Part shown: piece by piece, positions 26,357 to 42,216 of the stretch
Position numbering within the stretch: position 1 is the first letter of the stretch
Layout: the number at the start of each line of letters is the position of its first letter
Virus record (IMG/VR): IMGVR_UViG_3300047561_001935
Coordinates: 1-44,158 of that record
Strand: one strand, 5' to 3'
From: a virus
Lineage: Duplodnaviria; Caudoviricetes
Length of the DNA: 44,158 nt
Notes under the pieces: generated by a model
What the model was told of the DNA's origin: nothing
The model's input: only the letters and a program-made list of their open reading frames with translations
Databases searched by the model: none
Position numbers and translations under genes: made by a program

Positions 26357-26389
26357 TAGAAAATAGCTCTCGCAACATAAATAAGCTAT

Positions 26390-26938
26390 ATGGCCGTAGC
26401 TACAATTTCTGTTAATTTTGCAAATTCATCTGATATCACAACGGGTGCCAGTACTATAACTAGTATTAATCCCGCACAATTGAAGAGCGCTCTAACTAGT
26501 GGTGCAGCCATGTATGCATTATCTATTGCCGCACTAACAACCAATGGCAATCTAGCTGTGGTTGGTGCAACGACTGCTACTGGTGATATCACAGCCTATT
26601 CTTCTGATAAACGACTCAAAGATGTGGTGAGTATCATACCCAATGCTCTTGAGAAGGTCAATGCAATTTCTGGTGTACTATACAAACATAATGATGTAGC
26701 AAAAAAATATGGTTTTACAGAAAATGATCAAAAAGTTGGTGTGCTTGCCCAGGAAGTGCAAGCTGTATTACCTGAGGTAATTAAACCTGCACCGTTTGAT
26801 ACAGATGAAAATGGTGCAAGTAAGTCTGGTGAGAACTACCTGACTGTTCAATACGAAAAAATTGTCCCACTGCTGATTGAAGCAATCAAGGAACTTAGCA
26901 AAAAGGTTGAATTACTAGAACAAGCACGGGGTGAGTAA
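26390..26938 (+). CDS. Miniature fibre protein with a C-terminal peptidase S74 intramolecular chaperone
   Basis: GDITAY-SSDKRLK autocleavage motif, ALEKV..ISG, VGVLAQEVQAVLPEV and YEKIVPLLIEAIKEL; only about 71 aa precede the chaperone; TAAATA 6 nt upstream. Confidence 0.85.
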   Translation: MAVATISVNFANSSDITTGASTITSINPAQLKSALTSGAAMYALSIAALTTNGNLAVVGATTATGDITAYSSDKRLKDVVSIIPNALEKVNAISGVLYKHNDVAKKYGFTENDQKVGVLAQEVQAVLPEVIKPAPFDTDENGASKSGENYLTVQYEKIVPLLIEAIKELSKKVELLEQARGE

Positions 26939-26940
26939 TC

Positions 26941-27714
26941 ATGCCTAGCCCTGGCGATAACCTTTCAATAAACGCATTGGCGGCTGCAACAGGTGCTACA
27001 CCAAAGAGCTTAGGAACTATAGCTGGGAGCACAGCAACGCCAATTGCGGTAAGTGAATTCACTGTCACAGGGATTACTACCCCCACAGCAAGCGTGGCAA
27101 CTGTTGCGTATGGCTCAACTATAACTGTAACGTCTAATTTTACTGGAACCGGTGCACGATTTTTGTCCCGTATTGGGAGCCGAGCTGCTAACTTCACTTG
27201 GTCAACACCTGCCAATCTGACACTCACAACTAACAATGGGTACAACAGGATCTACACAAACGCATATAACCCTGGCTCAACTAGCTGCAGTTCTTCCACA
27301 ACAAGAACAGTAGCAGTAACTTTTGCAGACGGGTTTAATCTCACTGCGTCAAATTATAATGTTGCGTTAACAACAACAGCATTTACGACTTATTCACCAC
27401 CCAAGCCGTCCTTGACAGGTATCGGGTTAGTACGCCCACCACAACCTTGTGATACTGTCACTGGTGGTTGCGGTGCAGCATGCTATGGAGCTTCAATAAG
27501 ACTCAATGGCAATGCAGGCAGTTACAATGGTGTGCTGGGTTCTTCTAATTCTTATTATATTGCAGGCGTTCTTCGATCCACTGTTGCAGGCAACACTTCA
27601 ACATACGATTCTGCCGCAATATTTTGCGGCAATACTGCTTATAGCTGCTATGTTATAAATAATTATTCTTGCCAGGGTGATGCAGTTAACGTCACTACAT
27701 TAGCATATCTCTAA
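26941..27714 (+). CDS. Putative fibre-tip adhesin, Thr/Ser-rich with Cys-containing C-terminal half
   Basis: Directly follows the S74 fibre; MPSPGDNLSINAL N-terminus resembles adhesin attachment segments; 7 Cys. Confidence 0.55.
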   Translation: MPSPGDNLSINALAAATGATPKSLGTIAGSTATPIAVSEFTVTGITTPTASVATVAYGSTITVTSNFTGTGARFLSRIGSRAANFTWSTPANLTLTTNNGYNRIYTNAYNPGSTSCSSSTTRTVAVTFADGFNLTASNYNVALTTTAFTTYSPPKPSLTGIGLVRPPQPCDTVTGGCGAACYGASIRLNGNAGSYNGVLGSSNSYYIAGVLRSTVAGNTSTYDSAAIFCGNTAYSCYVINNYSCQGDAVNVTTLAYL

Positions 27715-27747
27715 TAGAATAATCTCTTCTTTTAAATAAATTACTGT

Positions 27748-28371
27748 GTGAACTACAGTACACTGGACATACACCTGGTTGTAGCAAAATACAAAGAAAA
27801 TATAGATTGGGCCGTAAATGCAGGTGTGCCTCACACAATCTATAACAAAGACCAGGAGTGTAAAGATTCACGCTTCATTAATTTACCCAACATAGGAAGA
27901 GAAGCGCATACATACTTGCACTACATCGTGACTAATTACCACAATTTGCCTGATTACGTATTTTTCTCTGAAGGCAACTGTCTGTCCAACAGACCTCTGG
28001 AAACCATGGAACCGATTGAAAATCTTTATAGTGAAATAAAGAATTTTAGAGGCATGCCACGGGTCAAGCCGATGGGTACCCGTGTTGTGGAGCGAATAGA
28101 AGGTGATCAAACATGCTATGAATTAAATTTAAATGTAGTAAGAGTGTATGAAAAGCTATTTAAAATTGAACAAACAGAATTTGTCTATTATATTGGTGGT
28201 CAATTAATTGTACCAAGATCCAGAATAACATTTCATTCACATAATTTCTATAAACACCTATATGAAAATATTTCTGATGTAAGAGGGGTTGGGTATTGTG
28301 CATGGACTCTGGAACGACTTTGGCCTTACATTTACAATGGAAAAACTAAGAGTGTTATAGATGATTGTTAA
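27748..28371 (+). CDS. DUF3431 family protein
   Basis: LVVAKYKENIDW, IYNK, LPNIGREAHTYLHYIVTNY..LPDYVFF and LERLW motifs. Confidence 0.8.
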   Translation: MNYSTLDIHLVVAKYKENIDWAVNAGVPHTIYNKDQECKDSRFINLPNIGREAHTYLHYIVTNYHNLPDYVFFSEGNCLSNRPLETMEPIENLYSEIKNFRGMPRVKPMGTRVVERIEGDQTCYELNLNVVRVYEKLFKIEQTEFVYYIGGQLIVPRSRITFHSHNFYKHLYENISDVRGVGYCAWTLERLWPYIYNGKTKSVIDDC

Positions 28372-29305
28372 ACCAAATTTCATAAACCTAAAAGTACTGT
28401 ATAGAACTGATACAACTATAGCAATTTTTATTAGCACCTGGATACATGATGCAATCCTTTTTACTAAAATTGAAATGCTCTTTAATGAAATTAGATCTCA
28501 TTATAAAAAGGTGTATGTGTTTTTAATACCGTGGTGGTATAAGGATGGTGTCAATCACTATAAGCTGCTGGAAAAATACACTACAAATGTTACAATGCTG
28601 GCAAATTCAATTGATGAGGATCTTTTTTATAAGAGACACAAATTAAATTCAATATATTGCAATCAAAATTGTTGGCTAGATGCATCCATCTTTAATATAA
28701 TATCGATAGAAAAAGAGTATGACCTGGTTATTAATGCCAATAATTCCGAATGGAAAAATCATCATATGCTAGCAGATATTAACAAGAAATACAAAACACT
28801 CTTCATAACATACAATACGTCAATTAATAATTTACAAAGATATAACCCTGCATGTATTTTGAATGAAATTCGTACATATAGGGTAGTAGAAGAGCTTAAC
28901 AAATGTAGAGTTGGATTAGCTCTATCCACAAAAGAAGGATCCTGTTATGCATCTACAGAATATCTGCTGTGTGGATTGCCAGTGATTAGTACGAAGAGTG
29001 TTGGAGGGAGACAGGGATGGTATGACGAGCATAATTCAATTGTGGTTAACCCTAACGGACCAGAGCTAGACAAAGCGATTGAAGGTGCATTAAAGAATAT
29101 TGATACCTTTAACAGTGTGGACATAAGAAACAACTGCATAAAGAAGCAACAAATGTTTAGAACCATCTTTGCTGAACAAATGCAAAAAATCTTACCTGAA
29201 GCGAATGTCAAATTACTTATTGATAATGCATTTACCCACAAAATGCTAAATTACATGAAGGTTGATAACATCACATTAGATTATATAATAAATCATGAAA
29301 TTTAA
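28361..29305 (+). CDS. Glycosyltransferase (GT-B, GT4-like)
   Basis: KNH, LALSTKEGSCYASTEYLLCGLPVIST (ExxxxxxxE) motif. Confidence 0.8.
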   Translation: MIVKPNFINLKVLYRTDTTIAIFISTWIHDAILFTKIEMLFNEIRSHYKKVYVFLIPWWYKDGVNHYKLLEKYTTNVTMLANSIDEDLFYKRHKLNSIYCNQNCWLDASIFNIISIEKEYDLVINANNSEWKNHHMLADINKKYKTLFITYNTSINNLQRYNPACILNEIRTYRVVEELNKCRVGLALSTKEGSCYASTEYLLCGLPVISTKSVGGRQGWYDEHNSIVVNPNGPELDKAIEGALKNIDTFNSVDIRNNCIKKQQMFRTIFAEQMQKILPEANVKLLIDNAFTHKMLNYMKVDNITLDYIINHEI

Positions 29306-30053
29306 TTGTCAGCTCAATATAGAAGAACTATCATTTCTTCAAGCCGCAATTAACAGCTACAGCTACAGTGACAACTTGCTCAAGACGAATCTACTTGCAT
29401 TAATATCTGAAGCAATACAATTAAGGCAGTTTAGCGATAAATTTTGCACACACCTAAGAGCACTTACTGCTAAAGCCAGAATATTAAAGAAAATTAACAA
29501 TCAATATGAGGAGAGTGTGTTGGTTGGAGAACAAGAAGGCACATACAATGATAAATTAAAAAATAATGAAATCTTTACAGATAGAGAGATTCTATTGGTT
29601 TCTTTAATAAAGAATTATTTTTATGATAAAAGGATACTTGAAGTGGGTTGTGGTACTGGGCAAATTGCCATTTTTCTAAAAACTTGTGGTGTTGATATTG
29701 AAGCTTGCGATCTAGCCCCATACAGACAGAACCTCTCTCTACAGATGTGTAAATTCTTTAATATTGATCTGCCAGTATATAATCAACCATTTCAAGAGCT
29801 TGATCTAGGCAAATATGATGTAATTATTGCAGCTAATATCAGACACTCAAAAAATAACTTTTTAAAAGATAGAATACTATTTGAAAATTTTCTATTATCA
29901 GAAAATAAATTTGTCGTATTAGATTGGACAGATTACTCTACTGTTGAAGAGGACAAGGATACAATTAAAAGCTTCGCAAGAATACAGATAGACAGGGTTT
30001 TAAATTTTATTCAAACAAGAAATGGGCTAACACAAAGATATGCAAATCTCTGA
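29295..30053 (+). CDS. Class I SAM-dependent methyltransferase
   Basis: ILEVGCGTG, IEACD, YDVII motifs. Confidence 0.8.
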   Translation: MKFNCQLNIEELSFLQAAINSYSYSDNLLKTNLLALISEAIQLRQFSDKFCTHLRALTAKARILKKINNQYEESVLVGEQEGTYNDKLKNNEIFTDREILLVSLIKNYFYDKRILEVGCGTGQIAIFLKTCGVDIEACDLAPYRQNLSLQMCKFFNIDLPVYNQPFQELDLGKYDVIIAANIRHSKNNFLKDRILFENFLLSENKFVVLDWTDYSTVEEDKDTIKSFARIQIDRVLNFIQTRNGLTQRYANL

Positions 30054-31440
30054 TTCAAGAATAGATGATTTATATTGTAGTTTTAGTGAAATAAACACTA
30101 AAAAACATACAGCTTTTACAAAAGAAGAATTCGTAACAAAGCTGGAATATGAATTACTCAATAATCCCAGAGTAAGAAATAATAACACAGTTTCTTCGGC
30201 TATCGATTATTTAGTTATCTCAGAAAAGCTCCCGTACGAGACAATAGCAGGCTTCGTACACAACGAATTGGTTGAAGAATTTAAATATAATAAACCTATT
30301 AAAAATTTTAAATTTAAAAACAGTAAGAATTGCTGCATTGCGCCATACTCAACCCTAAACTTTGATACCACTGGTAAGATAAGAGTGTGTTGCTATAACA
30401 ATTACTTCATATTGGGTGCATACCCGGTATCCTCAATAGCGGATGCCTGGAATAACCCTGAACGAGATTCATTTATTCAAAAGCTCTCTAGATTGGAATT
30501 TCCCAAGGGTTGCGAGAAATGCAGATTTCAAGTTGTTACAAACAACATCAATAATGCACTATTCACTAAATTTGACGTATATGAACCAGTTCTATCTGAT
30601 ATGCCTATCAATATGGAGTTTGAATTTGGTAACATTTGTAATTTTGAATGTATAATGTGTGGTGGTAAATGGTCTTCATCAATCAGAAAAAATAGAGAGA
30701 AGCTGCCACCAATCATATCGCCATATGATGATAACTTTGTGAATGAGCTTGTACCGTTCATTAAACACCTAAGACTTGCCAACTTCTTAGGAGGGGAACC
30801 GTTTCTAACATCCCTATATTATAAGATATGGGATAAAATATTTGAGCATAATCCTAGCTGTGCAGTATATGTAACAACTAACGGGTCCATATTGTCACCT
30901 AAAGTCAGAGAGTACCTTACCAAGAGTAACATGAGAGTGGTTGTTTCTCTTGATTCTCTCCAGAGAGACACATATGAGCTCATACGCAAGAACGGAAATT
31001 TTAATTTGGTCATGAAGAATGTTTTTGAGTTCTTAGCAATGAAGAGATTATCAACAATTGCGTTTTGCCCACTCATACAAAACGTGTTAGAACTGCCAGC
31101 AATAGCAAAATTTTGTATAGATAATGGTATTGCGCTATATATAAACACTGTCACCAAGCCGCTTGGTGGAAGAATAAAAGGAATTCATGAGGGTGAAGCA
31201 AACAACACGAGCGTTTGGACAGGAGATGATAGCAAGATGGAACAAGTCATTGATGCCAAGGGACCTTTGATACCTGAATTTTGCCTATCCTCTCTAAGTG
31301 CTGAACAGCTAGATACAATTGCCAAAACACTTACCAACCATATAGATACTCTTTCTGCAAATAAGACCATACAGCGACAATATATTGATTTTGTAAAATC
31401 GCTGAACGGTTATAAGTATAACAAAACTGATAACATATGA
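30040..31440 (+). CDS. Radical SAM enzyme with N-terminal twitch/SPASM-like domain
   Basis: CIAPY...G.IRVCC...W...CEKC ahead of CNFECIMC (CxxxCxxC), GGEPF, TTNGS, VSLDS. Confidence 0.9.
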   Translation: MQISDSRIDDLYCSFSEINTKKHTAFTKEEFVTKLEYELLNNPRVRNNNTVSSAIDYLVISEKLPYETIAGFVHNELVEEFKYNKPIKNFKFKNSKNCCIAPYSTLNFDTTGKIRVCCYNNYFILGAYPVSSIADAWNNPERDSFIQKLSRLEFPKGCEKCRFQVVTNNINNALFTKFDVYEPVLSDMPINMEFEFGNICNFECIMCGGKWSSSIRKNREKLPPIISPYDDNFVNELVPFIKHLRLANFLGGEPFLTSLYYKIWDKIFEHNPSCAVYVTTNGSILSPKVREYLTKSNMRVVVSLDSLQRDTYELIRKNGNFNLVMKNVFEFLAMKRLSTIAFCPLIQNVLELPAIAKFCIDNGIALYINTVTKPLGGRIKGIHEGEANNTSVWTGDDSKMEQVIDAKGPLIPEFCLSSLSAEQLDTIAKTLTNHIDTLSANKTIQRQYIDFVKSLNGYKYNKTDNI

Positions 31441-32348
31441 ATATTGTAACAGATAATGTAATAAAAATAAGATTTACTACTCAGCTGCACGGCCCAATAC
31501 AAGAGGACTACCTTCTGCAAGGACGAAGCATATTAACTGGTCGCGACTTTAGCAAAGAGATAATAGACATCAAGCAAATTGAGTACCAAGTGGATCAAAA
31601 TGAAATGAAGTATTTCAGGAAAAATAAAAATCATGCTAGTTCCCTAGCAACTAACGACCCTACGATTAATCTTACATCAGAGCATTTCTTCATAGCCCGT
31701 AGCCTAGGTATCAATGTGCAAGACGTTTTTTATAGAAGAGAAGATATCCTATTAGCTGCCTATAGAAAAAAATTATTATTATTTCTAGAGCATAAGTACT
31801 GTAGAAATCGCTATTCAGAAAAAATTCATTCCAATATTGTATCCATTACAGATGGATCCATACTGCTGCAATATCTGCCGTTCAATACATTCTATCGAGA
31901 GAATAACACCTCACGTGCATACAATTACATTCATTCAATTAGGGTTAAGCTCTACAATATGCTGTACCCGGGGTTACAGGAATTTATTGAGTTGCACGAC
32001 AGGGAATACAATTGGATAACTGAATGTCTTAAGACGTTCAATATACAAGGGTTAAGATTTGCAGATTTTAATAGCGCAAATGAATCAGTGATGCAATCCA
32101 TGAGAATTCATTGGAAGCAGCTCATCTTTCAAACTTATGAAAAAGCCTTGGAGTTGTTAAGAGAAGAACAAGAGAGTGCCACTAAATTTGATGATAAAGA
32201 ATCTTTGAGAGAGATAGACTCAATACAAAGCGAGCTACAGAATACAGTATCAAATTTAAATCTTGAAAACTATATAACTCCAAATGAGTTGTTAAAATTT
32301 TGGCCAGATATCTTAGCTCCAGGACCGTCACTATTGTTCCCATATTAA
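31437..32348 (+). CDS. Hypothetical protein with C-terminal tail-assembly-chaperone-like helical domain
   Basis: C-terminus WKQLI...KAL..L...EID.I..EL...ELLKFWPDILAP is shared with 37272..38162. Confidence 0.6.
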   Translation: MNIVTDNVIKIRFTTQLHGPIQEDYLLQGRSILTGRDFSKEIIDIKQIEYQVDQNEMKYFRKNKNHASSLATNDPTINLTSEHFFIARSLGINVQDVFYRREDILLAAYRKKLLLFLEHKYCRNRYSEKIHSNIVSITDGSILLQYLPFNTFYRENNTSRAYNYIHSIRVKLYNMLYPGLQEFIELHDREYNWITECLKTFNIQGLRFADFNSANESVMQSMRIHWKQLIFQTYEKALELLREEQESATKFDDKESLREIDSIQSELQNTVSNLNLENYITPNELLKFWPDILAPGPSLLFPY

Positions 32349-33232
32349 TGAGTGTGTTTGATAGCGGTGCAGAGGATTTAGATCCCTTTATAACAAACAA
32401 GAGTACTGTGATAATAACCAGTACCACGTATGATTTTGTAGAAATGCTTTTAAACTGGTATGAGTCATTAAGGAGAGTTAATTTGCATGAATTAGCCTTT
32501 GTTATAGCATTAGATACAAAATCATACGACACACTACAGGCTAAAAATATTCCTTGTGCGCTTATAGATGCAAAGGTTGAAAACAATACTGCCGCACAAT
32601 GGATAGAGAATGCAAAGAGATTTAAGCCTCGAGGTGTTCTGCACTTATATAAGAACTACCCAGTAAATCTCATACATCTAGATACAGATATTATTTTTTT
32701 TAAAAACTTTATTCCAAGATTAGAACAAGATGTTGTTGGTTATGATATGATCATGGCATCAGACAGACGATTTGATGCCTTTACTCACAAACGGGTCAAA
32801 GATAGAATTATTACAGTAGACCATGGCAAGACAGCTGTTTCTGATTGGGGGCTGGCTGAACAAACAAAATTTGGAGAAAAAAACGGTGCTATAATGTACT
32901 TACCACAGAATAATAAAGAAAAAAATTTAGTATATCTAGAGAAAAATACTAGCGAGGAAATGTATAAAAAGTTTCCAATTGGCGTGCAGGAGGGTAGCTT
33001 GCAAACAATATCTAATAGCAAAGCATTAATTGAAGAAACAGGAATCAATATTAAGGTACTCTCAGTATATGATTTTCCAAATGGTAGTTTGTGGAAAATC
33101 CCGTATTTGAGAGACCAAATTAAAGATACGTGTTATCTTGTCCATTACAATTTTCACTCTCATGCAGATCCGAAAAATAGGTTAAAAGAGAAAATTGAAG
33201 CAATGAAATTATACGAACACTGGTATTTGTAG
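32348..33232 (+). CDS. Nucleotide-diphospho-sugar transferase (GT-A, GT77-like)
   Basis: EMLLNW..SL, VIALD, LDTDIIF (DxD), FPNG, VHYNF. Start at ATG 32348 overlapping the upstream stop (TAATG). Confidence 0.75.
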   Translation: MSVFDSGAEDLDPFITNKSTVIITSTTYDFVEMLLNWYESLRRVNLHELAFVIALDTKSYDTLQAKNIPCALIDAKVENNTAAQWIENAKRFKPRGVLHLYKNYPVNLIHLDTDIIFFKNFIPRLEQDVVGYDMIMASDRRFDAFTHKRVKDRIITVDHGKTAVSDWGLAEQTKFGEKNGAIMYLPQNNKEKNLVYLEKNTSEEMYKKFPIGVQEGSLQTISNSKALIEETGINIKVLSVYDFPNGSLWKIPYLRDQIKDTCYLVHYNFHSHADPKNRLKEKIEAMKLYEHWYL

Positions 33233-33264
33233 ATTTTTCAGTTAAATACTATAGAATAATATAT

Positions 33265-33513
33265 ATGGTGTCAACGAAAGATCACTTAATTGAGAGTAAT
33301 ATGAGTTATATATACCACTGCAAACATGGTATTATAAATGGTACTAGACTACTGCTTGGAGCTCTTGCAAGCTACGTACATAGCTTCTTTCCATCGCTTT
33401 TTCCTAGATATAGTATAATGACAGTGTTATCACTATACCATGAAATTAAGCGCTACTGCCATATTCAGAAGATTGAGCGTAGATATCTAGATGAACACAA
33501 AGAAAAAGACTAA
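33265..33513 (+). CDS. DUF6356-like small membrane-associated protein
   Basis: HL.E.NMSY..H...VHSFFP.LF pattern. Confidence 0.55.
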   Translation: MVSTKDHLIESNMSYIYHCKHGIINGTRLLLGALASYVHSFFPSLFPRYSIMTVLSLYHEIKRYCHIQKIERRYLDEHKEKD

Positions 33514-35026
33514 AGTCTGTATAGTTGGTGGAGGCTCAGCGGGCTGGATAACACTTGCATATTTGGCAGCCACAACCGACTTGGATTTAACTATGGTCTA
33601 TAGTGATGAGATAGATATTATTGGTGTTGGCGAGAGCACCACACCTACAGTGAAGTATATTGCTAGTACTGTGGGTATAGATGAGAGGACCTGGATGAAA
33701 GATTCAAAAGCCACTTTCAAGTACGGTGTAGATTTCATAAACTTTAACCGGATAGGTTCGCGCTGGTTCCATTCTTTTGATGATTTAATACCTCATCAGT
33801 GCTTTAGTACACCCCTCACACATTTTGGAAAAGAAATCTTTACACAAGATATAAGTAGTGTAGAATATTTCCTGACAAAGAGAAAAACCGATGCAACTTA
33901 TAATACAGATTGGTTCAACACAACACACGGTTGTCAACAGTTTTTGCTGGAGAATAAACTAAGCCCATACAATAAACACTACAAATCTAATATAGGCGAA
34001 TTTCCAGGCTATAGTTACCATGTTAATGCTTTTGAATTTGGAAAGTGCTTGAAAAAACATACACCTCCTCACAAATATAAGGAAATCATAAGCACAGTGG
34101 TTAAGGTTAATCATAATGAAGATGGTGTCAAGAGTATTTTATTAGATAATGGACGGACAATAGAAGCAGATGTATTTTTTGACTGCTCAGGCATGAAACA
34201 TGTCTTAACTAAAAGTCTTACCAAATGGGTAGAATATGCAGGACTACCTAACAATAGTGCTGTATTTGGACCCATTAAGAATTTACAACTTTTCAAGCCT
34301 GCTACTGAAGCAATTGCTCAAGAGGCTGGATGGGCATGGGTCACTCCAACACTAGGACAGGTGGGCACTGGTTACGTATTTTCTGATAATTTTATCTCTG
34401 AAGACAACGCAGTTCAAGCATTGAAAAATTTATGGAAGGCTAGAGGCCAGAGTTGGGAGCCTCTCAAAAGTGTTAAATTTAGCGCTGGTAGATTGGCAGA
34501 GGTGTCGTGTAAGAATGTTGTGAGCAATGGTCTTGGTCAGAGCTTCATAGAGCCTCTTGAAGCTACGAGCATTATGGTTACATGTGTAACAGTAATATTG
34601 TTTGCAAAAATCTTTAATAAGCACAAAGAATGGAATATTAGAAGCACAAGAGCACACAACTCAATAATGATAAAGTTTCTAGAAAATACGAAAAATTTCG
34701 TAAAATACCATTACCTTTTAACAGAGAGAACTGATAATGATTATTGGAAGCAATTTAAAAATAGTACTGCTGCACAAGAAGTTAGTAATACTATTAAAGC
34801 TAATCTTAAAGCTAAATGGGTAGATAGAGGTCAGACGCTATTTAATAAATGGAACTGGGCCAGCATGCTCATGGGGTATGACAAACCATACACGAGCACT
34901 CTACCAGATTTATGTAGCGATGAAATCTCTGAGTACACACATTACACAGACTTATTAATACGTAATTATAAGTTTTTGAACAAAGACAACCTTTCAATCA
35001 AGGAAGTATTGGAATCATTAAAATGA
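33491..35026 (+). CDS. Flavin-dependent tryptophan halogenase family protein
   Basis: IVGGGSAGW, IGVGESTTP, ATFKYG (catalytic Lys position), FFDCSG, GWAWVTP (WxWxIP variant), FIEPLEATSI. Confidence 0.9.
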   Translation: MNTKKKTKVCIVGGGSAGWITLAYLAATTDLDLTMVYSDEIDIIGVGESTTPTVKYIASTVGIDERTWMKDSKATFKYGVDFINFNRIGSRWFHSFDDLIPHQCFSTPLTHFGKEIFTQDISSVEYFLTKRKTDATYNTDWFNTTHGCQQFLLENKLSPYNKHYKSNIGEFPGYSYHVNAFEFGKCLKKHTPPHKYKEIISTVVKVNHNEDGVKSILLDNGRTIEADVFFDCSGMKHVLTKSLTKWVEYAGLPNNSAVFGPIKNLQLFKPATEAIAQEAGWAWVTPTLGQVGTGYVFSDNFISEDNAVQALKNLWKARGQSWEPLKSVKFSAGRLAEVSCKNVVSNGLGQSFIEPLEATSIMVTCVTVILFAKIFNKHKEWNIRSTRAHNSIMIKFLENTKNFVKYHYLLTERTDNDYWKQFKNSTAAQEVSNTIKANLKAKWVDRGQTLFNKWNWASMLMGYDKPYTSTLPDLCSDEISEYTHYTDLLIRNYKFLNKDNLSIKEVLESLK

Positions 35027-35319
35027 TTTTTGAAAATATAAAAGATAGCATTACGATATTGAGCAAATATCGGCAAAGATCATATTGGTCAAAACCCAAT
35101 GTAGTAGAGCTTTTATGCTTTATGAATAAGCTTTTAATTATTATTCCTGGTCTGCTGTTCGGATATCAGTGGTGGTGGCTATATATATTTGCTATCGTGT
35201 CAAGCTTGGGGCTTATCTGGAGCGGTACAATAAAGTTGCAACCAACTATCGTACTCTTTAATTATGCATGGACTGCACTCGCAATATGTGCTATAGCAAA
35301 GCATTTTTTATGCAATTAG
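35023..35319 (+). CDS. Small multi-pass membrane protein
   Basis: 98 aa with about three hydrophobic segments; ATGA overlap with the halogenase. Confidence 0.65.
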   Translation: MIFENIKDSITILSKYRQRSYWSKPNVVELLCFMNKLLIIIPGLLFGYQWWWLYIFAIVSSLGLIWSGTIKLQPTIVLFNYAWTALAICAIAKHFLCN

Positions 35320-35780
35320 TCTTTAAGCTCATTAATCCAAAATGCAAAGAAGAGGTTGAATATACCTACAGTCTTCTTGTCAAGAGGTATAGTATAGAAA
35401 ATACTGTAATTCGTGATACACCGAAACCTACATACGAACAGCACAAAACTAATATTACTAAGAAATTTTTGGATTATAGAATTATTTTTTTTAAGAATAT
35501 ACGCTTAGGTATTGTTGCGCTAAACAAAGACGGGTCACTGACTCACAACTATGATTTTAAATCGATCAAGACAAACATTAAGAACATATCACGCAAAAGC
35601 TTTGAGATTAGTTACAGCATATATTCTCAGTATATAAAATTATTAAATCTTAAGAAGAGTTTTGTTCGAATTAATCCGAGAAACCAAAAAGCACTTATTC
35701 TTTTTATGAAAATGCTTCAAACGCACCCAGAGCATGGCATATACGTTAAAGATATACAATTGAACCTCGTGCATGACTAA
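35310..35780 (+). CDS. Hypothetical protein, possibly degenerate GNAT acetyltransferase
   Basis: PTYEQH and RINPRNQKALILF recall PseH-like GNATs; start ATG 35310. Confidence 0.45.
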   Translation: MQLVFKLINPKCKEEVEYTYSLLVKRYSIENTVIRDTPKPTYEQHKTNITKKFLDYRIIFFKNIRLGIVALNKDGSLTHNYDFKSIKTNIKNISRKSFEISYSIYSQYIKLLNLKKSFVRINPRNQKALILFMKMLQTHPEHGIYVKDIQLNLVHD

Positions 35781-36402
35781 CACGTCTCCATTTACTGTGG
35801 TAGATCAATTTGAAGCAGAGATCGCCGCCTACGCTGGTTCAAAGTATGCAGTCGCTGTGGATTGCTGTACTAATGCTATCTTTCTATGTTTAAAGTATAT
35901 TAACAACCCACAAACTATTACTATACCAAAAAAGACATACATCTCTGTGCCATCTTCCATTATTCACGCAGGGTATGGAGTACAATTTGAAGATATAAGC
36001 TGGTCAGGTGTGTATCAGTTGAGGCCGCTTCCTGTTTTTGATGGAGCCGCAAGATTTAAAAGAGGAATGTATCAAGGTGGTTACCACTGTCTCTCCTTTC
36101 ACATCAAAAAACATATAAAAATCGGTAAGGGTGGTATGATTCTGACAGACGACAGAGAAGCTTACGATTGGCTCAGGTTAGCGAGATTTAACGGCCGCAA
36201 TCCTGTGCCATATGATGTGGATAAGTTTAATATGGTCGGGTGGAATTACTATATGACAGGCATGGACGCTGCCCGTGGTCTGTGGCTGTTGGCATGTGGT
36301 GAACAGGAATACCCTGACTTGCCCATGGAGAATTACCCTGATCTGTCCATATACAGCCTTGATCGTGCAAGAGGTGGGGATAAATTATACAGATATGATT
36401 GA
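35773..36402 (+). CDS. DegT/DnrJ/EryC1/StrS PLP-dependent sugar aminotransferase (short form)
   Basis: FEAEIAAYAGSKYAVAVDCCTNA, FDGA, CLSFHIKKH..IGKGGMILTD, GWNYYM. Confidence 0.85.
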   Translation: MTNTSPFTVVDQFEAEIAAYAGSKYAVAVDCCTNAIFLCLKYINNPQTITIPKKTYISVPSSIIHAGYGVQFEDISWSGVYQLRPLPVFDGAARFKRGMYQGGYHCLSFHIKKHIKIGKGGMILTDDREAYDWLRLARFNGRNPVPYDVDKFNMVGWNYYMTGMDAARGLWLLACGEQEYPDLPMENYPDLSIYSLDRARGGDKLYRYD

Positions 36403-37270
36403 ATACCTGTCAAAAATTACTGTTAACGGTAGAGCCATTGAGATTCCAGTAACAGCGGAAAGAATTGAGGCTGGCGAAGATGTGGTGTTATTCAATCAAG
36501 ATATGCCACCTAGTTTTGAAGCAGATTGGATGCAGACAGGGTACACAGTTCAAGACTTCTTAACTCCAGAAGAAAATGAATCTATCAAACAAGCTGCACA
36601 AACTGGCATAAAGAACAGCATGGACGAGCTTAATATCCCTTCAGAGGGATTTACACTGGAGAAGTATCATGAATTTGTTAATGATGAAACGCACATGCAG
36701 GTTGTTGATCAAATTCGTGCAGGGGGTGATGGTACTGGTGGCATTCCATATAATAGATTGCCTGTGTCTTTGGAGCGTATAGAAGAACGTATCAGTCAAA
36801 TATGCAATTGTAAGGTTGTAGGCAGAAAAACCTTCAATTGTGGTGAAGGAAAAACTATAACGTCGAGTTGTTTCTGGGTGAGAATTGTTAGGCCCCAGAA
36901 ATTCAAAGACAACAATCCTCCACACAGAGACAATCATCTTGATCGTGGTGGTGATGAAGGCAAGAAAGCAGTAAACTTGTATTATCCATTAGCAGGTAGC
37001 AATGAGAATTCAGCATTACCAATTATACCAGGCAGCCACTTGTGGTCAGAGAAGGACACAGTTAGAACGTTCGGCCAAGTATTTGTTAACGGTGTCAAAT
37101 TTACAAACCCAGCAATTGTAGACTCTGTGCATGGTCTTAATCTAATAACTCCAAACCCTAAGTTTAATCAAGTCATGGTATTTACCCCTTATGTTATTCA
37201 TGGTGGTGGGTTCAATTTCAATAGTGATGTGACACGGGTTTCATTGGAAATGCGATTCTGGCGACCATAA
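36395..37270 (+). CDS. Fe(II)/2-oxoglutarate dioxygenase (phytanoyl-CoA dioxygenase-like)
   Basis: PPHRD (HxD), LPIIPGSH, IHGG, TRVSLEMRF; start ATG 36395. Confidence 0.85.
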   Translation: MIEYLSKITVNGRAIEIPVTAERIEAGEDVVLFNQDMPPSFEADWMQTGYTVQDFLTPEENESIKQAAQTGIKNSMDELNIPSEGFTLEKYHEFVNDETHMQVVDQIRAGGDGTGGIPYNRLPVSLERIEERISQICNCKVVGRKTFNCGEGKTITSSCFWVRIVRPQKFKDNNPPHRDNHLDRGGDEGKKAVNLYYPLAGSNENSALPIIPGSHLWSEKDTVRTFGQVFVNGVKFTNPAIVDSVHGLNLITPNPKFNQVMVFTPYVIHGGGFNFNSDVTRVSLEMRFWRP

Positions 37271-37271
37271 T

Positions 37272-38162
37272 ATGCACAATGGGTCACTGTTGGCGCTGAC
37301 CACCACTCTGCTTGACCGCGGGGTGGTGATTAAGATTTTCTTTTCGGAAAACTCTTTAAAAAAATTTGTTATAGTTTGTAGCTCGAAGCATGCCACTCGG
37401 TTTGGTGTATCTCAAGTCGCTGCAGATTTTGTAGATGTAATTAGTGACAAAGCAGTAGATATTAGTACTCTTAGTATTGATGTACTGGAGTATCAGCATC
37501 TACCACCAAATGTTTATCTGGATGATTTAACAAAGGATGTAGGACTTGCGCAAACATTTGGTAAAGATTTTCTCATGCAGGACAAAAGTTACGTAGAGAA
37601 TATTGAGAATTTTATTAGTCAAGAACGCACACGGTTTATTTCTTATGTTATAGAATCAATGGGTGTTGTGCATAAATCGGATAAAAATCTAATCAATGCA
37701 AGCTATTTGGTTAGATTCCTGGAACTGCCTCCGCAGAGTGAATCTGCCGAAATAATTAGCAATAAAATTAAGCAAGATGCAATTAATAAATTTTTTATTG
37801 TCAAGGATAGTGATCAGTACATATTACCTGGTCTACGACAAATTGGCACTACAAACAGCATTATTAAGAATGAAGATATTAACATTCTTAATGCAGTTAA
37901 AGTGCTCTGGTATCATGAAATACAAAAGCAGAAAGAAAATGCTTTGATATACATAGAGAATATACTAAAGCAGTTACTGGAAAACACTACAGACTTGAGT
38001 GATGTGGAGAAGCAAGAATATCTAGCACAAAGCCATCAATACAAGGAAGTAATTGAAAATATTAACGGAGACCTTCTCAATGATTGCCACAATATAAAAG
38101 AAGTTATTAATTTATGGCCTGACATACTCTATCCCCTACCATGGTTTGCATATGGAAATTAA
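37272..38162 (+). CDS. Hypothetical protein with C-terminal tail-assembly-chaperone-like helical domain
   Basis: C-terminus WYHEI...NAL..I...EVINLWPDILYPLP is shared with 31437..32348. Confidence 0.6.
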   Translation: MHNGSLLALTTTLLDRGVVIKIFFSENSLKKFVIVCSSKHATRFGVSQVAADFVDVISDKAVDISTLSIDVLEYQHLPPNVYLDDLTKDVGLAQTFGKDFLMQDKSYVENIENFISQERTRFISYVIESMGVVHKSDKNLINASYLVRFLELPPQSESAEIISNKIKQDAINKFFIVKDSDQYILPGLRQIGTTNSIIKNEDINILNAVKVLWYHEIQKQKENALIYIENILKQLLENTTDLSDVEKQEYLAQSHQYKEVIENINGDLLNDCHNIKEVINLWPDILYPLPWFAYGN

Positions 38163-38895
38163 TTTTTTATGGATTGGAGACAAATTAGGTAAGCTTGAAC
38201 AACTCACTCTAAAGTCCTTTCTTGATAACGGCCATCAGCCAGTGGTATGGTTGTATGATATGGATTGTGCAGGCATACCTGAAGGTACCCTTGAGAGAGA
38301 TGCAAATGAGATTCTACCATCATCCAGAATTTTTTCTTATGAAGGTCGTGGAGATTGCAGAGCAGGTAGTTATGGTGGCTTCTCCGATCTCTTTAGATAC
38401 TATCTGTTAAGAGCTGTGGGTGGATGGTATTGTGACATGGATGTTACCTGTCTGCAATCGTTTGCTGCTATTAGCAACAGTGAGTATGTAATACGCCCGC
38501 ACAACAAGGTGGAGATAGTAGGTAATATAATAAAGACACCCAAGAATGCACCGTTTCTTAATGATTGCATAGCATTAACAGAGAAGCACATAGACAAAGA
38601 CAATGACAGATGGGTCAAGCCAGTGGAAATATTGAGAGATTGTGTCAAGAAGCATTCCCTTGAGCAATACCTTGCACCAATTGATTGGTTTGGAAATGAT
38701 AACATTGAAGACATAAGACAGATGCTCAGTATCGGTGTTTTTTGTAAAAAAGAATTACAACCAAAATATGCGCTACATTGGTGCAATGAAGCAACATCCA
38801 CAGGTCAATGGGATTATTCCATAAAAAGAAATTTTAATAAACCTATACCAACAACATTATTTTATAATTTATTGAAGAAGCATAAGCTACTATGA
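38152..38895 (+). CDS. Glycosyltransferase (GT32-like, DxD sugar-binding)
   Basis: FLWIG..L..LEQL.LKSF...GH, DANEILP, FSDLFRY, GGWYCDMDV. Confidence 0.85.
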   Translation: MEINFLWIGDKLGKLEQLTLKSFLDNGHQPVVWLYDMDCAGIPEGTLERDANEILPSSRIFSYEGRGDCRAGSYGGFSDLFRYYLLRAVGGWYCDMDVTCLQSFAAISNSEYVIRPHNKVEIVGNIIKTPKNAPFLNDCIALTEKHIDKDNDRWVKPVEILRDCVKKHSLEQYLAPIDWFGNDNIEDIRQMLSIGVFCKKELQPKYALHWCNEATSTGQWDYSIKRNFNKPIPTTLFYNLLKKHKLL

Positions 38896-39752
38896 ATGCT
38901 GCCTTTGTAACAACCTTGGATGATAATTTTGTACCAGGCTATATGGTTGCAGTTTCGACATTAATTGCAACGACAGTAAACTTTAATTATGATATTGTTA
39001 TTCTTGAATGGGGCACACTCAGCGAGGATAATAAAGAAAAGATAAGACAGCTATACCCCCGTACAATTTTCAAACATGTACATGCAGCAGATTACCCAGA
39101 TGTTACATATGATACAGAGCATCGTACATGGACATACAACTGCGGCTATCGATTTGATGTATTTTTATTGAATGAATACGAAAAAATAATATTTTTTGAT
39201 TGTGATATTGTGTTTAATGTTGATATGACATCTTTAATTTTATCTAATATTAATTTTGGTGCTGTTCCAAGACCAGCTACACGCATGCTTCAATTTGAAG
39301 GTAGAATAGGTTTTGATGCCGGGCTTATGGTTATAGGGAAGCCATTCTTGAATTTCACAACTAGAGATGGCTTAATTGATCTGCTCAAACAAGAGCCACC
39401 AGTGGATGAGAGAGTTCTATCAAAAAAATGGGTTGGCAATGAACCCATTCTAAATACTTTTTTTAAGGAAAAGGTTACCTGGCTTCCTAAGCAATATAAT
39501 TTATGTACTGATGAAGTTGGACATGATACCTTGAAGAATATGATGCCAAATTTACAATATATTGGACACAAGAAACCTTGGTACAGCGAGAATATAGCAG
39601 ATCAATTTGATCCCTATATTGTACAAGCATTAACAACACTAAATGGGAGATCATATGTAAATATTTTACTAGGAAAACTATCAAAGTATTTCTTGAGCAA
39701 ACAACAAAACGTACAAAACGTGCAGTTGAGTATCTGCAATTATCACATATAA
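38892..39752 (+). CDS. Glycosyltransferase family 8-like
   Basis: DDNFVPG, IFFDCD (DxD), FDAGLMVI, NEPILN, LPKQYN, QYIGHKKPW. Confidence 0.85.
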   Translation: MNAAFVTTLDDNFVPGYMVAVSTLIATTVNFNYDIVILEWGTLSEDNKEKIRQLYPRTIFKHVHAADYPDVTYDTEHRTWTYNCGYRFDVFLLNEYEKIIFFDCDIVFNVDMTSLILSNINFGAVPRPATRMLQFEGRIGFDAGLMVIGKPFLNFTTRDGLIDLLKQEPPVDERVLSKKWVGNEPILNTFFKEKVTWLPKQYNLCTDEVGHDTLKNMMPNLQYIGHKKPWYSENIADQFDPYIVQALTTLNGRSYVNILLGKLSKYFLSKQQNVQNVQLSICNYHI

Positions 39753-39753
39753 T
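39726..39753 (+). promoter_or_regulatory. sigma70-type early promoter, leaderless
   Basis: TTGAGT-N16-TATAAT-N6-ATG(39760). Confidence 0.75.
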
Positions 39754-39759
39754 AAATCA

Positions 39760-40416
39760 ATGGAGAGAGTTGTCATAGTAGTTCCTCATGGTGATGATGA
39801 GGCTATTGGGTTTGCAGGAGCTATGCAAAAACATATTCAAGCAGGAGATAATGTCACAGTAATTTTTGCGCGTAGTGCTGCACCCAATGATCAGAGATCT
39901 GAGCATCAGCTAGAGTGTACCAAGACAGCCAAAGATGTTTTAAAATATCACGATATAAGATACTTGCACATACCCGAGGACACTATATCTGATAATCCTT
40001 TAATACTTTTCCGTGCACTAGAGACTGCCCTATATGAGCTAGAACCTTCAATTGTTTATACTACGTTCTGGGGCGACAATCACCAAGATCATCAGATAAC
40101 ATATGATTGTGTATCTAGACTCATACGTGTATGGGGTGGATTAAAGGTCAAGAAATTTTTAGTAGGTGAGATAGCGAGCTCCACTGATCAATCATTAAAA
40201 ATACCCCATAACATGTTTGTACCAAATTACTATATTAAACTGTCAGATAAAGAATTCCGCAACAAGGTAAATTCACTCTTATGTTACACAGGTGAATTAA
40301 TGAAAGAACCCCATCCCAGATCAGCAAAAGGTCTGGAAACTCTTGCAAGATTCAGAGGCATGGAATGTAATTCGGAATTTGCAGAAGCTTTTATGTGTCT
40401 CAGGCACATTGCTTAG
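39760..40416 (+). CDS. PIG-L/LmbE family N-acetylsugar deacetylase
   Basis: VPHGDDE, DNHQDH, HPRS, RG....FAEAF motifs. Confidence 0.9.
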   Translation: MERVVIVVPHGDDEAIGFAGAMQKHIQAGDNVTVIFARSAAPNDQRSEHQLECTKTAKDVLKYHDIRYLHIPEDTISDNPLILFRALETALYELEPSIVYTTFWGDNHQDHQITYDCVSRLIRVWGGLKVKKFLVGEIASSTDQSLKIPHNMFVPNYYIKLSDKEFRNKVNSLLCYTGELMKEPHPRSAKGLETLARFRGMECNSEFAEAFMCLRHIA

Positions 40417-41206
40417 CATACGAATCAAAAATTCTTTTAAGATTTTCCGCGTCTTTACTTGTATCAACAGCTACTTTGCTCAATTCATCAAATACAAATG
40501 GCTCAAAGCATTTTTCGAGGTCATCTGAATGCCATGGCTTAGTGAATCCATGATACTGTATGATATTTGCACTCTGAAGCATTTTCTCTGTAGCTATTGA
40601 ACTCACCACATTAAATTCTTGTGGAAGATATTCTACAGTATCTTCAAAGCAAATATTAAAGACAGGTTGATCGCTTGACCAGCTCTGCCGTGACGCTATT
40701 CGTATTAGCTTATCCTTATAATACGGTCTGAGAATATTTTTGGATATTGACATTAACCCGCAATTGAAACGCTCTCTGTCCCTAACCTTGGGATCATTAG
40801 GGCCTATTTCAGGAATGCCTAAATGCTTTTTACAAGATCCAAAATCGTAATCATAATTAAACAACTCTGATATGTCCTTGAGTACAACCATGTCAGAGTC
40901 CATAATTATAATTCTATCGTATCCCAGGTCACCCATTTCGAAAACATCAAACCTATAGAAGAGATTATACCCCCATTGCTCTGTAGTAGGCTTGCACCCC
41001 GCATAGTCATTTTTCTTAGGCTGCAATACTTTGATATGCTTGTATAGTAATTTGACCGATCTTATATTTTCATCAGAAAGATTACCATCAGACAGCAGCA
41101 AGATATCTCCTTGAAACCAGGGATTAGTTTCAATTAAGCTCAGTAAAAACACTTTCATACTAAGAATGAAGTTGTCATTTAGTGCAAAAAGTAATGCCGT
41201 ATTCAT
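40400..41206 (-). CDS. Glycosyltransferase family 8-like
   Basis: NDNFI, IMDSD (DxD), FNCGLM, SDQPVFN, LPQEFN, QYHGFTKPW; paralogous to 38892..39752 (WxYNxxYRFDVF). Confidence 0.85.
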   Translation of the reverse strand: MNTALLFALNDNFILSMKVFLLSLIETNPWFQGDILLLSDGNLSDENIRSVKLLYKHIKVLQPKKNDYAGCKPTTEQWGYNLFYRFDVFEMGDLGYDRIIIMDSDMVVLKDISELFNYDYDFGSCKKHLGIPEIGPNDPKVRDRERFNCGLMSISKNILRPYYKDKLIRIASRQSWSSDQPVFNICFEDTVEYLPQEFNVVSSIATEKMLQSANIIQYHGFTKPWHSDDLEKCFEPFVFDELSKVAVDTSKDAENLKRIFDSYAKQCA

Positions 41207-41235
41207 AAGCTTAACTGTTAATTTAGCTTAATTTC

Positions 41236-41263
41236 TTGATTTTACAACAAGTTATACTAAAAT
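41236..41263 (+). promoter_or_regulatory. sigma70-type early promoter, leaderless
   Basis: TTGATT-N16-TAAAAT-N6-ATG(41270). Confidence 0.7.
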
Positions 41264-41269
41264 TGCAGT

Positions 41270-41449
41270 ATGGATGTGTCAACAGTATTACAGTTTTTTG
41301 ACTTATCTAAGCCATGCCCGGGCTCTATTAAAAACGGTGAAACACTTCGACAGACCTTTGCAGAGGAAATTAATAATATTTCTGCACAATGCAAGGAGTG
41401 TGAGCGTATAAAAATTCGCGATAAATACATAAAAATAATTAGATCATGA
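41270..41449 (+). CDS. Small Cys-containing hypothetical protein (59 aa, below ORF-track cutoff)
   Basis: MDVSTVLQFFDLSKPCPG...QCKECER...IIRS*; promoter upstream and ATGA overlap with the next gene. Confidence 0.65.
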   Translation: MDVSTVLQFFDLSKPCPGSIKNGETLRQTFAEEINNISAQCKECERIKIRDKYIKIIRS

Positions 41450-42216
41450 AAGTGTTAATTATTGGCCATGGCTATGTTGGGTCTGCAGTATCTTCAGTTT
41501 TCAGCAAAGCGGAAAAGGTTATTATTGATCCACGTATCAACAACATATCAATTGCCTGTGTTTCGCAAATTAGCTTTGACGCAGTATTCGTTTGCGTAGA
41601 TACACCTGCAACTAATAGCTTCAAAACTCTTGATGGTATACTTGAGCTGCTCAACAAGCACATGAAAAAAGGAACTATTGTATGTTGCAAGTCAACAGCC
41701 ACTCCCGCATTCTATGAGTGTGCAGAAAAGAGATACAATAATATACATGTAATTCATAGTCCTGAATATTTGTCCCATCATTCAAACATCCGCGACTTCC
41801 AGTCACAAAAATTTGCCATATTTGGGGGACAGCATTCAGCATGCATTATTCTATCTAAAATACTAAAACCTAGATTGAGACTCTTGAAGCACATAGAATT
41901 TACAGACATCAAGACTGCAGCGTTTGTGAAGTATGCTGAAAACGGATTCTTATCTTATAAGATTACGTTCTTTAATGAGCTATATAATATTCATAAGAAG
42001 TTAAACATACCAGTATCATATGAGAGATTGGTCGAACTCTTGGTATTGGATGAGCGCATAGGGTCTTCACATACACAAGTACCTGGTAGAGATGGCAAGA
42101 GAGGATGGGGCGGACATTGTTTTGATAAAGATAATTTGCAATTGGAAAAATTTAGTAAAAGTAAATTAATTAAATTCATGAGAAATATTAACAAACAACA
42201 CAGAGCACAAAAATGA
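41446..42216 (+). CDS. UDP-glucose/GDP-mannose dehydrogenase family protein (short form)
   Basis: IIGHGYVG, FVCVDTP, KST, SPEYL, KYAEN.FL..KITFFNE, GWGGHCFDKD. Confidence 0.85.
   Translation: MKVLIIGHGYVGSAVSSVFSKAEKVIIDPRINNISIACVSQISFDAVFVCVDTPATNSFKTLDGILELLNKHMKKGTIVCCKSTATPAFYECAEKRYNNIHVIHSPEYLSHHSNIRDFQSQKFAIFGGQHSACIILSKILKPRLRLLKHIEFTDIKTAAFVKYAENGFLSYKITFFNELYNIHKKLNIPVSYERLVELLVLDERIGSSHTQVPGRDGKRGWGGHCFDKDNLQLEKFSKSKLIKFMRNINKQHRAQK

Follow-up and report, generated by a model that had tools for sequence, protein, structure and literature searches.

A Conserved Fibre-Tip Gene Block of a T4-Like Aquatic Phage and Its Putative Role in Virion Glycosylation

Aquatic T4-like phages often carry islands of genes for glycosyltransferases (GTs), radical S-adenosylmethionine (SAM) enzymes and halogenases, whose target is usually assumed, without data, to be the lipopolysaccharide (LPS) of the host. 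Whether such an island would instead serve the virion is the question raised by positions 26,390 to 42,216 of the virus record IMGVR_UViG_3300047561_001935, of which the whole stretch of 44,158 nucleotides was analysed (the window). There, a gene pair for a mini-fibre and an adhesin-like protein is followed by a cassette of GT and tailoring genes. This 16-kb block is real and conserved, and it belongs to a general kind that has been published, namely fibre-linked GT/radical SAM islands (PMC7029224, PMC7824862). New are the relocatable mini-fibre head, a chaperone-like domain that occurs strictly in two copies and goes together with GTs, as well as a link, weakly predicted, between a cassette protein and the adhesin. 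With a probability of about 0.5, the soluble enzymes of this block would build and edit, late in infection, a glycan destined for virion proteins of the phage itself, be it the adhesin, the fibre or others.

Linkage of the Cassette to the Fibre Tip

The genes Portal_T4 and T4-gp15 identify the 44-kb record as a T4-like phage, with a portal protein that shares only about 30% identity with those of the nearest cultured phages. The sequencing runs that contain the stretch are freshwater or lake metagenomes, and no RNA run is listed among them. Since a single contig of the independent run X3 spans positions 27480-39513, the block is no assembly artefact. It lies between the dCMP (deoxycytidine monophosphate) deaminase and the phosphoribosyltransferase region. 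The complete relative G004 (229.7 kb) carries the usual T4-like core. The head and the fixed parts of the block are the following (E, expectation value).

26378..26383, plus strand: TAAATA, late-promoter motif of the T4 type, 6 nt upstream of the ATG of the fibre gene
26390..26938, plus strand: mini-fibre, 182 amino acids, with a mature part of about 71 amino acids and a Peptidase_S74 intramolecular chaperone (Pfam E 5.5e-12)
26941..27714, plus strand: adhesin-like protein, 257 amino acids, modelled with three short N-terminal helices and two sandwiches like those of immunoglobulin (Ig) or fibronectin type III (FN3) domains (structure model, 22 homologues)
31437..32348, plus strand: X1, with a small beta domain, a helical body and a C-terminal helical-hairpin WP domain that is tail-assembly-chaperone-like (profile searches, model); predicted adhesin partner
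37272..38162, plus strand: X2, second WP-domain protein, immediately before the GT32-like gene (hhalign to X1 95.8%, E 7e-9)
38152..38895, plus strand: GT-A glycosyltransferase, GT32-like, core gene (Pfam Gly_transf_sug E 1.3e-7)
38892..39752, plus strand: GT8 glycosyltransferase, core gene (Pfam Glyco_transf_8 E 7.4e-12)
39760..40416, plus strand: PIG-L family de-N-acetylase (Pfam E 1.7e-16)

Upstream DNA is in view in eleven lineages, namely the window clade (G001, G002, L012), L006, the G004 group, L011, L017, L027/28, L030, L056/57, L072, L073 and L074/75. The sequence-only reading, a preceding interpretation of the window, had tied the cassette to the fibre and adhesin genes and had named homologous cassettes without such linkage as the case against itself. 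This case was tested, and an S74 fibre, a gene in the adhesin position and X were found together at the head of the block in 11/11 lineages, which do not amount to eleven independent events because the phages are kin. The enzymes of L030 are not in view, its sequence stopping just behind X1. Between the adhesin and X, no gene intervenes in eight lineages, one in two, and four in the window clade. Six of the eleven lineages had been found by X1, GT77 or GT32 queries, not by the adhesin.

The adhesins belong to two unrelated families, A (including those of the window and G004) and B (L072-L075); with the N-terminal profile of family A, family-B adhesins are not detected. The genomic setting differs as well, the block being located behind an exonuclease-dCMP deaminase pair in 5/11 lineages and behind large structural genes in another 5/11. 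The fixed core of two WP domains, the GT32-like enzyme and GT8 is present in 11 of 12 cassettes compared (L017 is cut), and PIG-L in nine of the 12.

Left out of the linkage count were L021/L058, L066, L068 and L069, whose contigs end inside the cassette (no S74 domain in these 13-27% complete records), as well as L018 (1.2 kb) and L076-L078, which show 26-29% partial GT32 matches without another cassette gene or a fibre. A GT32 scan of bacterial genomes confirmed 0/16 candidates. A halogenase scan of viral contigs found nothing, though relatives carry a halogenase; scans of this type are insensitive, because the halogenase of the relatives was missed.

Mini-Fibre and Adhesin

In a sequence search, the mini-fibre matches gp37 of S16 (PDB 6F45; E 9e-7). 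The S74 cleavage residues S72, D73 and K77 are invariant in 7/7 aligned fibres, and the S74 Ser and Lys are kept in the protein encoded at 26390. Because the fibres of relatives range from 173 to 787 amino acids, the mini-fibre is likely what remains of a longer fibre cut down to its tip.

The adhesin-like protein contains 7 Cys, 28% Ser plus Thr, 10% Gly and a single Trp. Its structure model has a pLDDT (predicted local distance difference test) of 89; residues 150-255 align with an FN3-like fold (Z 9.0, root-mean-square deviation 2.4, 87 residues aligned), with tandem adhesin and FN3 matches, and the three short N-terminal helices are modelled with low local confidence. No sequence match to gp38 of S16 (PDB 6F45) was obtained, so that the designation is based on position and fold, by which 26941 likely encodes a fibre-tip adhesin. 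Six Cys positions are kept in at least 90% of 19 aligned adhesins; the adhesin tree is mostly unresolved. A separate protein, P0030, has the N-terminal 150 amino acids of the adhesin in common, followed by Hint-like and FN3-like regions as judged by eye.

The arrangement resembles the S16/T2-type gp37-gp38 tip (PDB 6F45), in which an S74-bearing fibre gene is likewise followed by a tip gene, and the short N-terminal helices of the adhesin model may add to the likeness. Unlike in that system, the mature fibre is only about 71 amino acids long, Ig/FN3 sandwiches replace the polyglycine domain, and gp38 is not matched in sequence.

Late-Promoter Motifs

TAAATA as such is not over-represented in the window (38 occurrences versus 41.6 by chance). 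Its placement, though, is pronounced: in 10/42 genes the motif ends 3-12 nt upstream of the start, versus 0.18 expected, which bears out the late-promoter head that had been proposed for the fibre/adhesin pair. The 6-nt spacing to the fibre start is kept in seven of nine fibre-bearing regions scanned. In G004, the motif precedes 10/19 hand-picked structural genes versus 2/22 replication or metabolic genes. From the placement of the motif, late expression of the block is likely.

The WP-Domain Proteins X1 and X2

X1 and X2 are similar in their C-terminal region (hhalign 95.8%). A profile search retrieved 172 cluster representatives, mostly via a helical domain of about 90 amino acids that ends in WP. 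The sequence-only reading had called this domain fibre-chaperone-like. No direct Pfam or PHROG match was obtained for it; support is transitive, in that 4/144 scanned distant homologues match Phage_tail_APC, one of them over the cut-off, and nearly all others match nothing. The X1 model is confident (pLDDT 93) and mostly helical, with the WP domain as a helical hairpin; its fold gave no Foldseek match at E<=0.001, no PDB sequence match and no usable Atlas hit. A sulfotransferase-like assignment of X1, made by eye, was dropped in view of the mostly helical model and the lack of a family match and of a conserved catalytic motif. A fusion of GT25 with a WP domain (P0066) was not used, being a singleton on a 2.3-kb contig.

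By domain profile, the WP domain occurs twice in every cassette seen far enough, either as X1 plus X2 (window, L006, L011, L017, L027, L056, G004) or as tandem copies in one gene (L072, L073, L074), where the first copy is weak (E 0.01-0.06). In the complete G004 genome, it is found only twice, both times in the cassette and nowhere else.

Complex prediction for X1 together with the adhesin and the trimer of the mature fibre gave a score of 0.57, compared with 0.00 for the best control and 0.00 when the adhesin was replaced; contact agreement between runs was at least 80% and partner pLDDT at least 81. The mark set for the score is reached by 116/157 solved complexes and 2/215 mismatches; scores at or under 0.60 comprise 18/157 solved complexes and both mismatches, and are graded weak by the tool. 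Binding of X1 to the adhesin is thus weakly predicted.

In modular plan and in position behind fibre genes, X1 and X2 resemble the fibre chaperones Mu Tfa and Pam3 gp25 (PF16778), which combine a variable N-terminal part with a conserved helical C-terminal domain (PMC9608196). They differ from Tfa-type chaperones in their size of about 300 amino acids, the lack of a direct family or PDB fold match, the presence of two copies, and their location among enzymes.

Tailoring Enzymes and the Swappable Module

The remaining features of the block are the following.

27733..27738, plus strand: TAAATA, 9 nt before the DUF3431 gene; at this site none in L001 or L012
27748..28371, plus strand: DUF3431 protein (Pfam E 3.7e-16)
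28361..29305, plus strand: GT-B glycosyltransferase, GT4-like (Pfam Glyco_trans_1_4 E 2.4e-6; PHROG 2170)
29295..30053, plus strand: SAM-dependent methyltransferase (Pfam Methyltransf_23 E 1.5e-6)
30040..31440, plus strand: radical SAM enzyme with N-side SPASM/twitch domain, CxxxCxxC intact (Pfam Radical_SAM E 1.1e-10; NF033640 E 2.7e-41)
32348..33232, plus strand: GT-A glycosyltransferase, Nucleotid_trans, GT77-like, DxD present (Pfam E 2.2e-15)
33243..33248, plus strand: TAAATA, 16 nt before the DUF6356 gene, on the left border of the swappable module
33265..33513, plus strand: DUF6356 protein (Pfam E 1.6e-8)
33269..37263, no strand: swappable central module, 4 kb; DNA match absent in G001/G002 except for 174 bp
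33491..35026, plus strand: flavin-dependent halogenase family protein (Pfam Trp_halogenase E 3.1e-87; PHROG 2928)
35023..35319, plus strand: hydrophobic, likely membrane protein of 98 amino acids, no family; 71% homologue in L017
35310..35780, plus strand: GNAT-like acyltransferase (Atlas feature score 0.95 to GNAT clusters; no Pfam match)
35773..36402, plus strand: short DegT-family aminotransferase, pyridoxal-phosphate-dependent, 209 amino acids (Pfam E 3.4e-21)
36395..37270, plus strand: PhyH-like Fe/2-oxoglutarate (2OG) dioxygenase (Pfam PhyH E 1.2e-7), bacterial homologues in polysaccharide loci
40400..41206, minus strand: second GT8 glycosyltransferase (Pfam Glyco_transf_8 E 5.2e-19)
41446..42216, plus strand: short UDP (uridine diphosphate)-sugar dehydrogenase, 256 amino acids (Pfam UDPG_MGDP_dh E 1.2e-13; TIGR03026 E 1.6e-34, under the cut-off)

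All enzymes that the sequence-only reading had named were found in their places and confirmed by Pfam, PHROG or NCBIfam, the GNAT-like protein by Atlas only. Its description of a mostly overlapping gene run holds for 13/19 junctions. One correction concerns the GT8 gene at 40400-41206, which is on the minus strand. Two small cassette genes were missing from its list, those of the DUF6356 protein (33265) and of the 98-amino-acid hydrophobic protein (35023). Before the dehydrogenase gene, an open reading frame for 59 amino acids with a CxxC motif but no family is observed (window 41270-41449, plus strand).

The CAZy labels GT4, GT77 and GT32 are presumably equivalent to the respective Pfam families. 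As read by eye, the catalytic motifs CxxxCxxC, GxGxxG, DxD, HxDD and HxD..H are intact. On N_Twi_rSAM (NF033640), the radical SAM enzyme scores 142 bits, under the curated cut-off of 170; two G004 cassette paralogues reach 198 and 241. The short form of DegT is conserved in 8/8 aligned copies. As had been claimed, no flippase, polymerase or exporter is recognised in the cassette by Pfam, and no DNA-base-modification enzyme by Pfam, PHROG or NCBIfam. An integral membrane GT is likewise not recognised by Pfam, though such membrane parts may come from the host. Within the cassette, only the 98-amino-acid protein exceeds 2.0 in a hydropathy window of 19 residues; none of the enzymes is hydrophobic.

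The dioxygenase is informative with regard to the product. Bacterial homologues were found in 14 loci, 13 of them at 37-44% identity, and five of six loci examined are of the same type, in which the gene lies beside a Wzm/Wzt-type exporter, WbqC, DegT and GT genes; by Pfam, the locus L085 comprises an ABC-2 exporter, WbqC, DegT, GT4, an epimerase, GT2 and an acyltransferase. Since these homologues reside in polysaccharide loci, a glycan is favoured over a peptide product. The phage cassette keeps such tailoring genes without the exporter.

How closely does the cassette follow the adhesin? On either side of positions 33269-37263, G001 and G002 match the window at 84-87%, and this central part is replaced: the halogenase module is gone, and a dioxygenase, an Asp/Asn-hydroxylase-family gene, another GNAT-like gene and two DegT genes are found instead. 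A joint at 33167-37178 across the same central module is seen in the sequencing run X2. Despite the 4-kb swap, the adhesin remains 89% identical. In L021 (7258-8155), a 93-amino-acid partial DegT directly before the full short DegT is seen as a duplication scar of module exchange. Cassette content in relatives varies widely with respect to the window (gene-family Jaccard index 0.11-0.88), and it is shared to a higher degree between G004 (family A) and L072 (family B; 0.58) than between G004 and the window (0.28). The module swap and the G004/L072 mismatch do not fit the expected co-variation of adhesin type with cassette content. On the other side, the GT32 tree splits family-A and family-B lineages at 100/99, and GT77 is present in 7/8 family-A rows and 0/3 family-B rows. 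The GT32 split and the GT77 distribution would favour some coupling of adhesin and cassette; ancestry explains them equally well.

Comparison with Other Phage Islands

In pelagimyophages and cyanomyophages, a host recognition cluster averaging 44.6 kb between vrlC and gp14 is read as modifying the host O-chain (PMC7029224). The block shares with it the character of a variable island in a T4-like aquatic myophage, the tail fibres, GT8, UDP-glucose dehydrogenase and radical SAM genes, and gradual module change; it differs in its length of 16 kb, the mini-fibre/adhesin head, the fixed two-copy chaperone-like domain, and a place outside the structural operon. In the window, the block does not lie between vrlC and gp14; in five relatives it follows large structural genes. 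Cyanophage clusters with halogenase, 2OG and carbamoyltransferase genes are proposed to decorate the capsule or to make a metabolite (PMC7824862). Halogenase, 2OG-Fe oxygenases, methyltransferases and GTs are common to these clusters and the block, as are carbamoyltransferases in relatives of the latter; unlike here, no fibre link is described in section 22 of that paper. Mycobacteriophage virions are reported to be glycosylated by a few phage-encoded GTs that act on capsid and tail tube (Freeman 2023, as cited in PMC12363180 and PMC12619734), which offers a precedent for a virion target. As described there, that system resembles the block in relying on GTs of the phage, whereas the block combines five GT-like genes with tailoring enzymes and is linked to a fibre tip. 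A literature search, with subscription papers mostly outside its reach, retrieved no study in which such an island had been tested on virions.

The Target of the Cassette

In a virion-directed pathway, the mini-fibre would trimerise via its S74 domain and then self-cleave, and the adhesin would cap the fibre tip by its N-terminal helices, like S16 gp38 on gp37. The chaperone-like X1 would hold the adhesin, by a contact for which the prediction is weak, and together with X2 it may hand the substrate to the neighbouring GT77-like and GT32-like/GT8 enzymes. The dehydrogenase, DegT and GNAT would supply acidic and N-acyl amino sugars, and the glycan or its substituents would be edited by PIG-L, the radical SAM enzyme, the dioxygenase, the methyltransferase and the halogenase. 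A swap of the central module would then alter the coat with the adhesin unchanged. In its most specific form, which we regard as tentative, the block would be a dedicated adhesin-maturation line, where repurposed chaperone domains serve as adaptors, each paired with a GT, and feed the adhesin to a swappable glycan pathway.

Several observations weigh against virion glycosylation. The adhesin shows no enrichment in N-x-S/T sequons (8 versus 5.7, p 0.2), and none of 14 adhesins shows a significant one. The score of the X1-adhesin complex falls in the weak range. The closest relatives do not share the internal TAAATA sites of the block, and in G004 the motif precedes 0/8 sugar genes outside the cassette. 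Soluble GTs are normal in O-antigen synthesis, too. The module of a relative includes a lipid hydroxylase that resembles OlsC and LpxO (E 4e-42 and 4e-31, both below the cut-offs). In the cultured phage KVP40, a trio of GT4, a small gene and a twitch radical SAM enzyme adjoins nrdA (L081 3692-6014); its GT4 and radical SAM pair, at 23% identity, has no annotated fibre gene within 5 kb. Shared ancestry plus one move of the block could explain the linkage. Finally, islands adjoining tail fibres are recombination hot spots, for which published readings favour modification of the host O-chain (PMC7029224, PMC7824862).

The last point leads to the main rival, which we consider rather unlikely for this block. 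The enzymes would modify the surface glycan or lipid of the infected host (O-chain, capsule, lipid A) via host carriers and exporters, so as to block superinfection or to help release, and fibre adjacency would follow from both having to match the host surface. Beside the published reading of the pelagimyophage and cyanophage clusters (PMC7029224, PMC7824862), an LPS galactosyltransferase model as best match of GT8, the bacterial polysaccharide loci of the dioxygenase homologues and the LpxO/OlsC-like gene in relatives point this way, and the 100/99 split of the GT32 tree with adhesin family is predicted by host matching as well. A head with a late-promoter motif, the presence of two chaperone-like genes in between the enzymes, a cassette in which no membrane GT, flippase or exporter is recognised, and the weak predicted X1-adhesin contact are less expected for a host target.

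Alternatively, though this is improbable, the block might be a mixed recombination island in which fibre, adhesin and X1 form an ordinary module and enzymes gather that serve other purposes, for instance the synthesis of a halogenated metabolite derived from sugar, as has been proposed for the cyanophage halogenase/2OG/carbamoyltransferase clusters (PMC7824862). The high variability in content, the other GT clusters elsewhere in G004 and the unlinked KVP40 pair would be accounted for. The fixed core, however, accompanies the fibre tip in both adhesin families and in both settings, and X2 is placed deep among the enzymes, directly before GT32.

A pathway in the manner of peptides that are made by the ribosome and then modified post-translationally (RiPPs) is very doubtful. 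Radical SAM enzyme, halogenase, dioxygenase and methyltransferase would act on adhesin residues, giving Cys cross-links, halogenated Trp/Tyr and hydroxylation, with X1 as the substrate-recognition element. The six conserved Cys positions, which could simply be disulfides, and the weak X1-adhesin prediction would agree with it, as would weak matches of the halogenase to the protein maturases QhpG and GoxB. The RiPP-style substrate co-varying with its enzymes, as put forward by the sequence-only reading, was not found, since the halogenase module is swapped out under an adhesin that is 89% identical and G004 and L072 are mismatched. Furthermore, the adhesin has one Trp, and the radical SAM enzyme fits N_Twi_rSAM far better than peptide maturases and is of a family without homologue in L027, L073 and L074.

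Decoration of phage DNA bases by the GTs and tailoring enzymes is most improbable, for although phage GTs do glycosylate DNA (PMC12619734) and the block lies behind dCMP deaminase in five lineages, no base-modifying enzyme is recognised in the cassette, its placement is late, it is found among structural genes in five other lineages, and the Que/FolE genes of G004 are elsewhere.

Other Sugar Genes and Candidate Substrates

A UDP-galactopyranose mutase gene (window 23424-24416, minus strand; TAAATA 15 nt upstream) is located 2 kb before the block and may feed the same or another glycan; its slot in L006 holds a GT10 fucosyltransferase and a GT4. Among the likely virion genes of the window, a 1346-amino-acid subtilase S8 fused to RCC1 repeats (7947-11987, minus strand) is the only protein tested with N-x-S/T enrichment (31 versus 18.9, p 0.0025 uncorrected). 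Paralogous repeat proteins that are rich in Ser/Thr (30-32%) and have late-promoter motifs (11993-12682 and 15630-16541, minus strand) are alternative candidates as O-glycosylation substrates.

In G004, further sugar genes adjoin structural genes (L039 4588-11549, L035 760-1542, L033 3736-4530, L032 2596-3291), including two GT2 and a GT-D by a glycine-rich protein, a sulfotransferase by the major capsid gene, a GT17 and a GT32-like gene. The same genome encodes FolE, QueD, a QueE-like protein, QueC, QueF and a glutamine amidotransferase (L037 18238-19671, L038 17992-18648, L039 341-2521, L034 6040-6957); DpdA was not recognised by Pfam in G004. Two PEP-CTERM proteins and a ferredoxin-dependent bilin reductase-like gene (L032 13611-14327, L040 12295-13863, L040 15082-15759) are possible clues to the host.

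Concluding Remarks

Because the block is compact and offers a fibre of only 71 amino acids, an adhesin that is small and foldable, a predicted adaptor and module swaps that occur in nature, the question of virion versus host can be approached by co-expression without phage culture, and the KVP40 trio provides a tractable model for the twitch radical SAM enzyme family. If the adaptor reading were true, a receptor-binding surface would be varied by chemistry instead of sequence. If the target is the virion, glycosylation of virions would extend to receptor-binding tips, and the chemistry of twitch radical SAM enzymes and halogenases would be opened to study.

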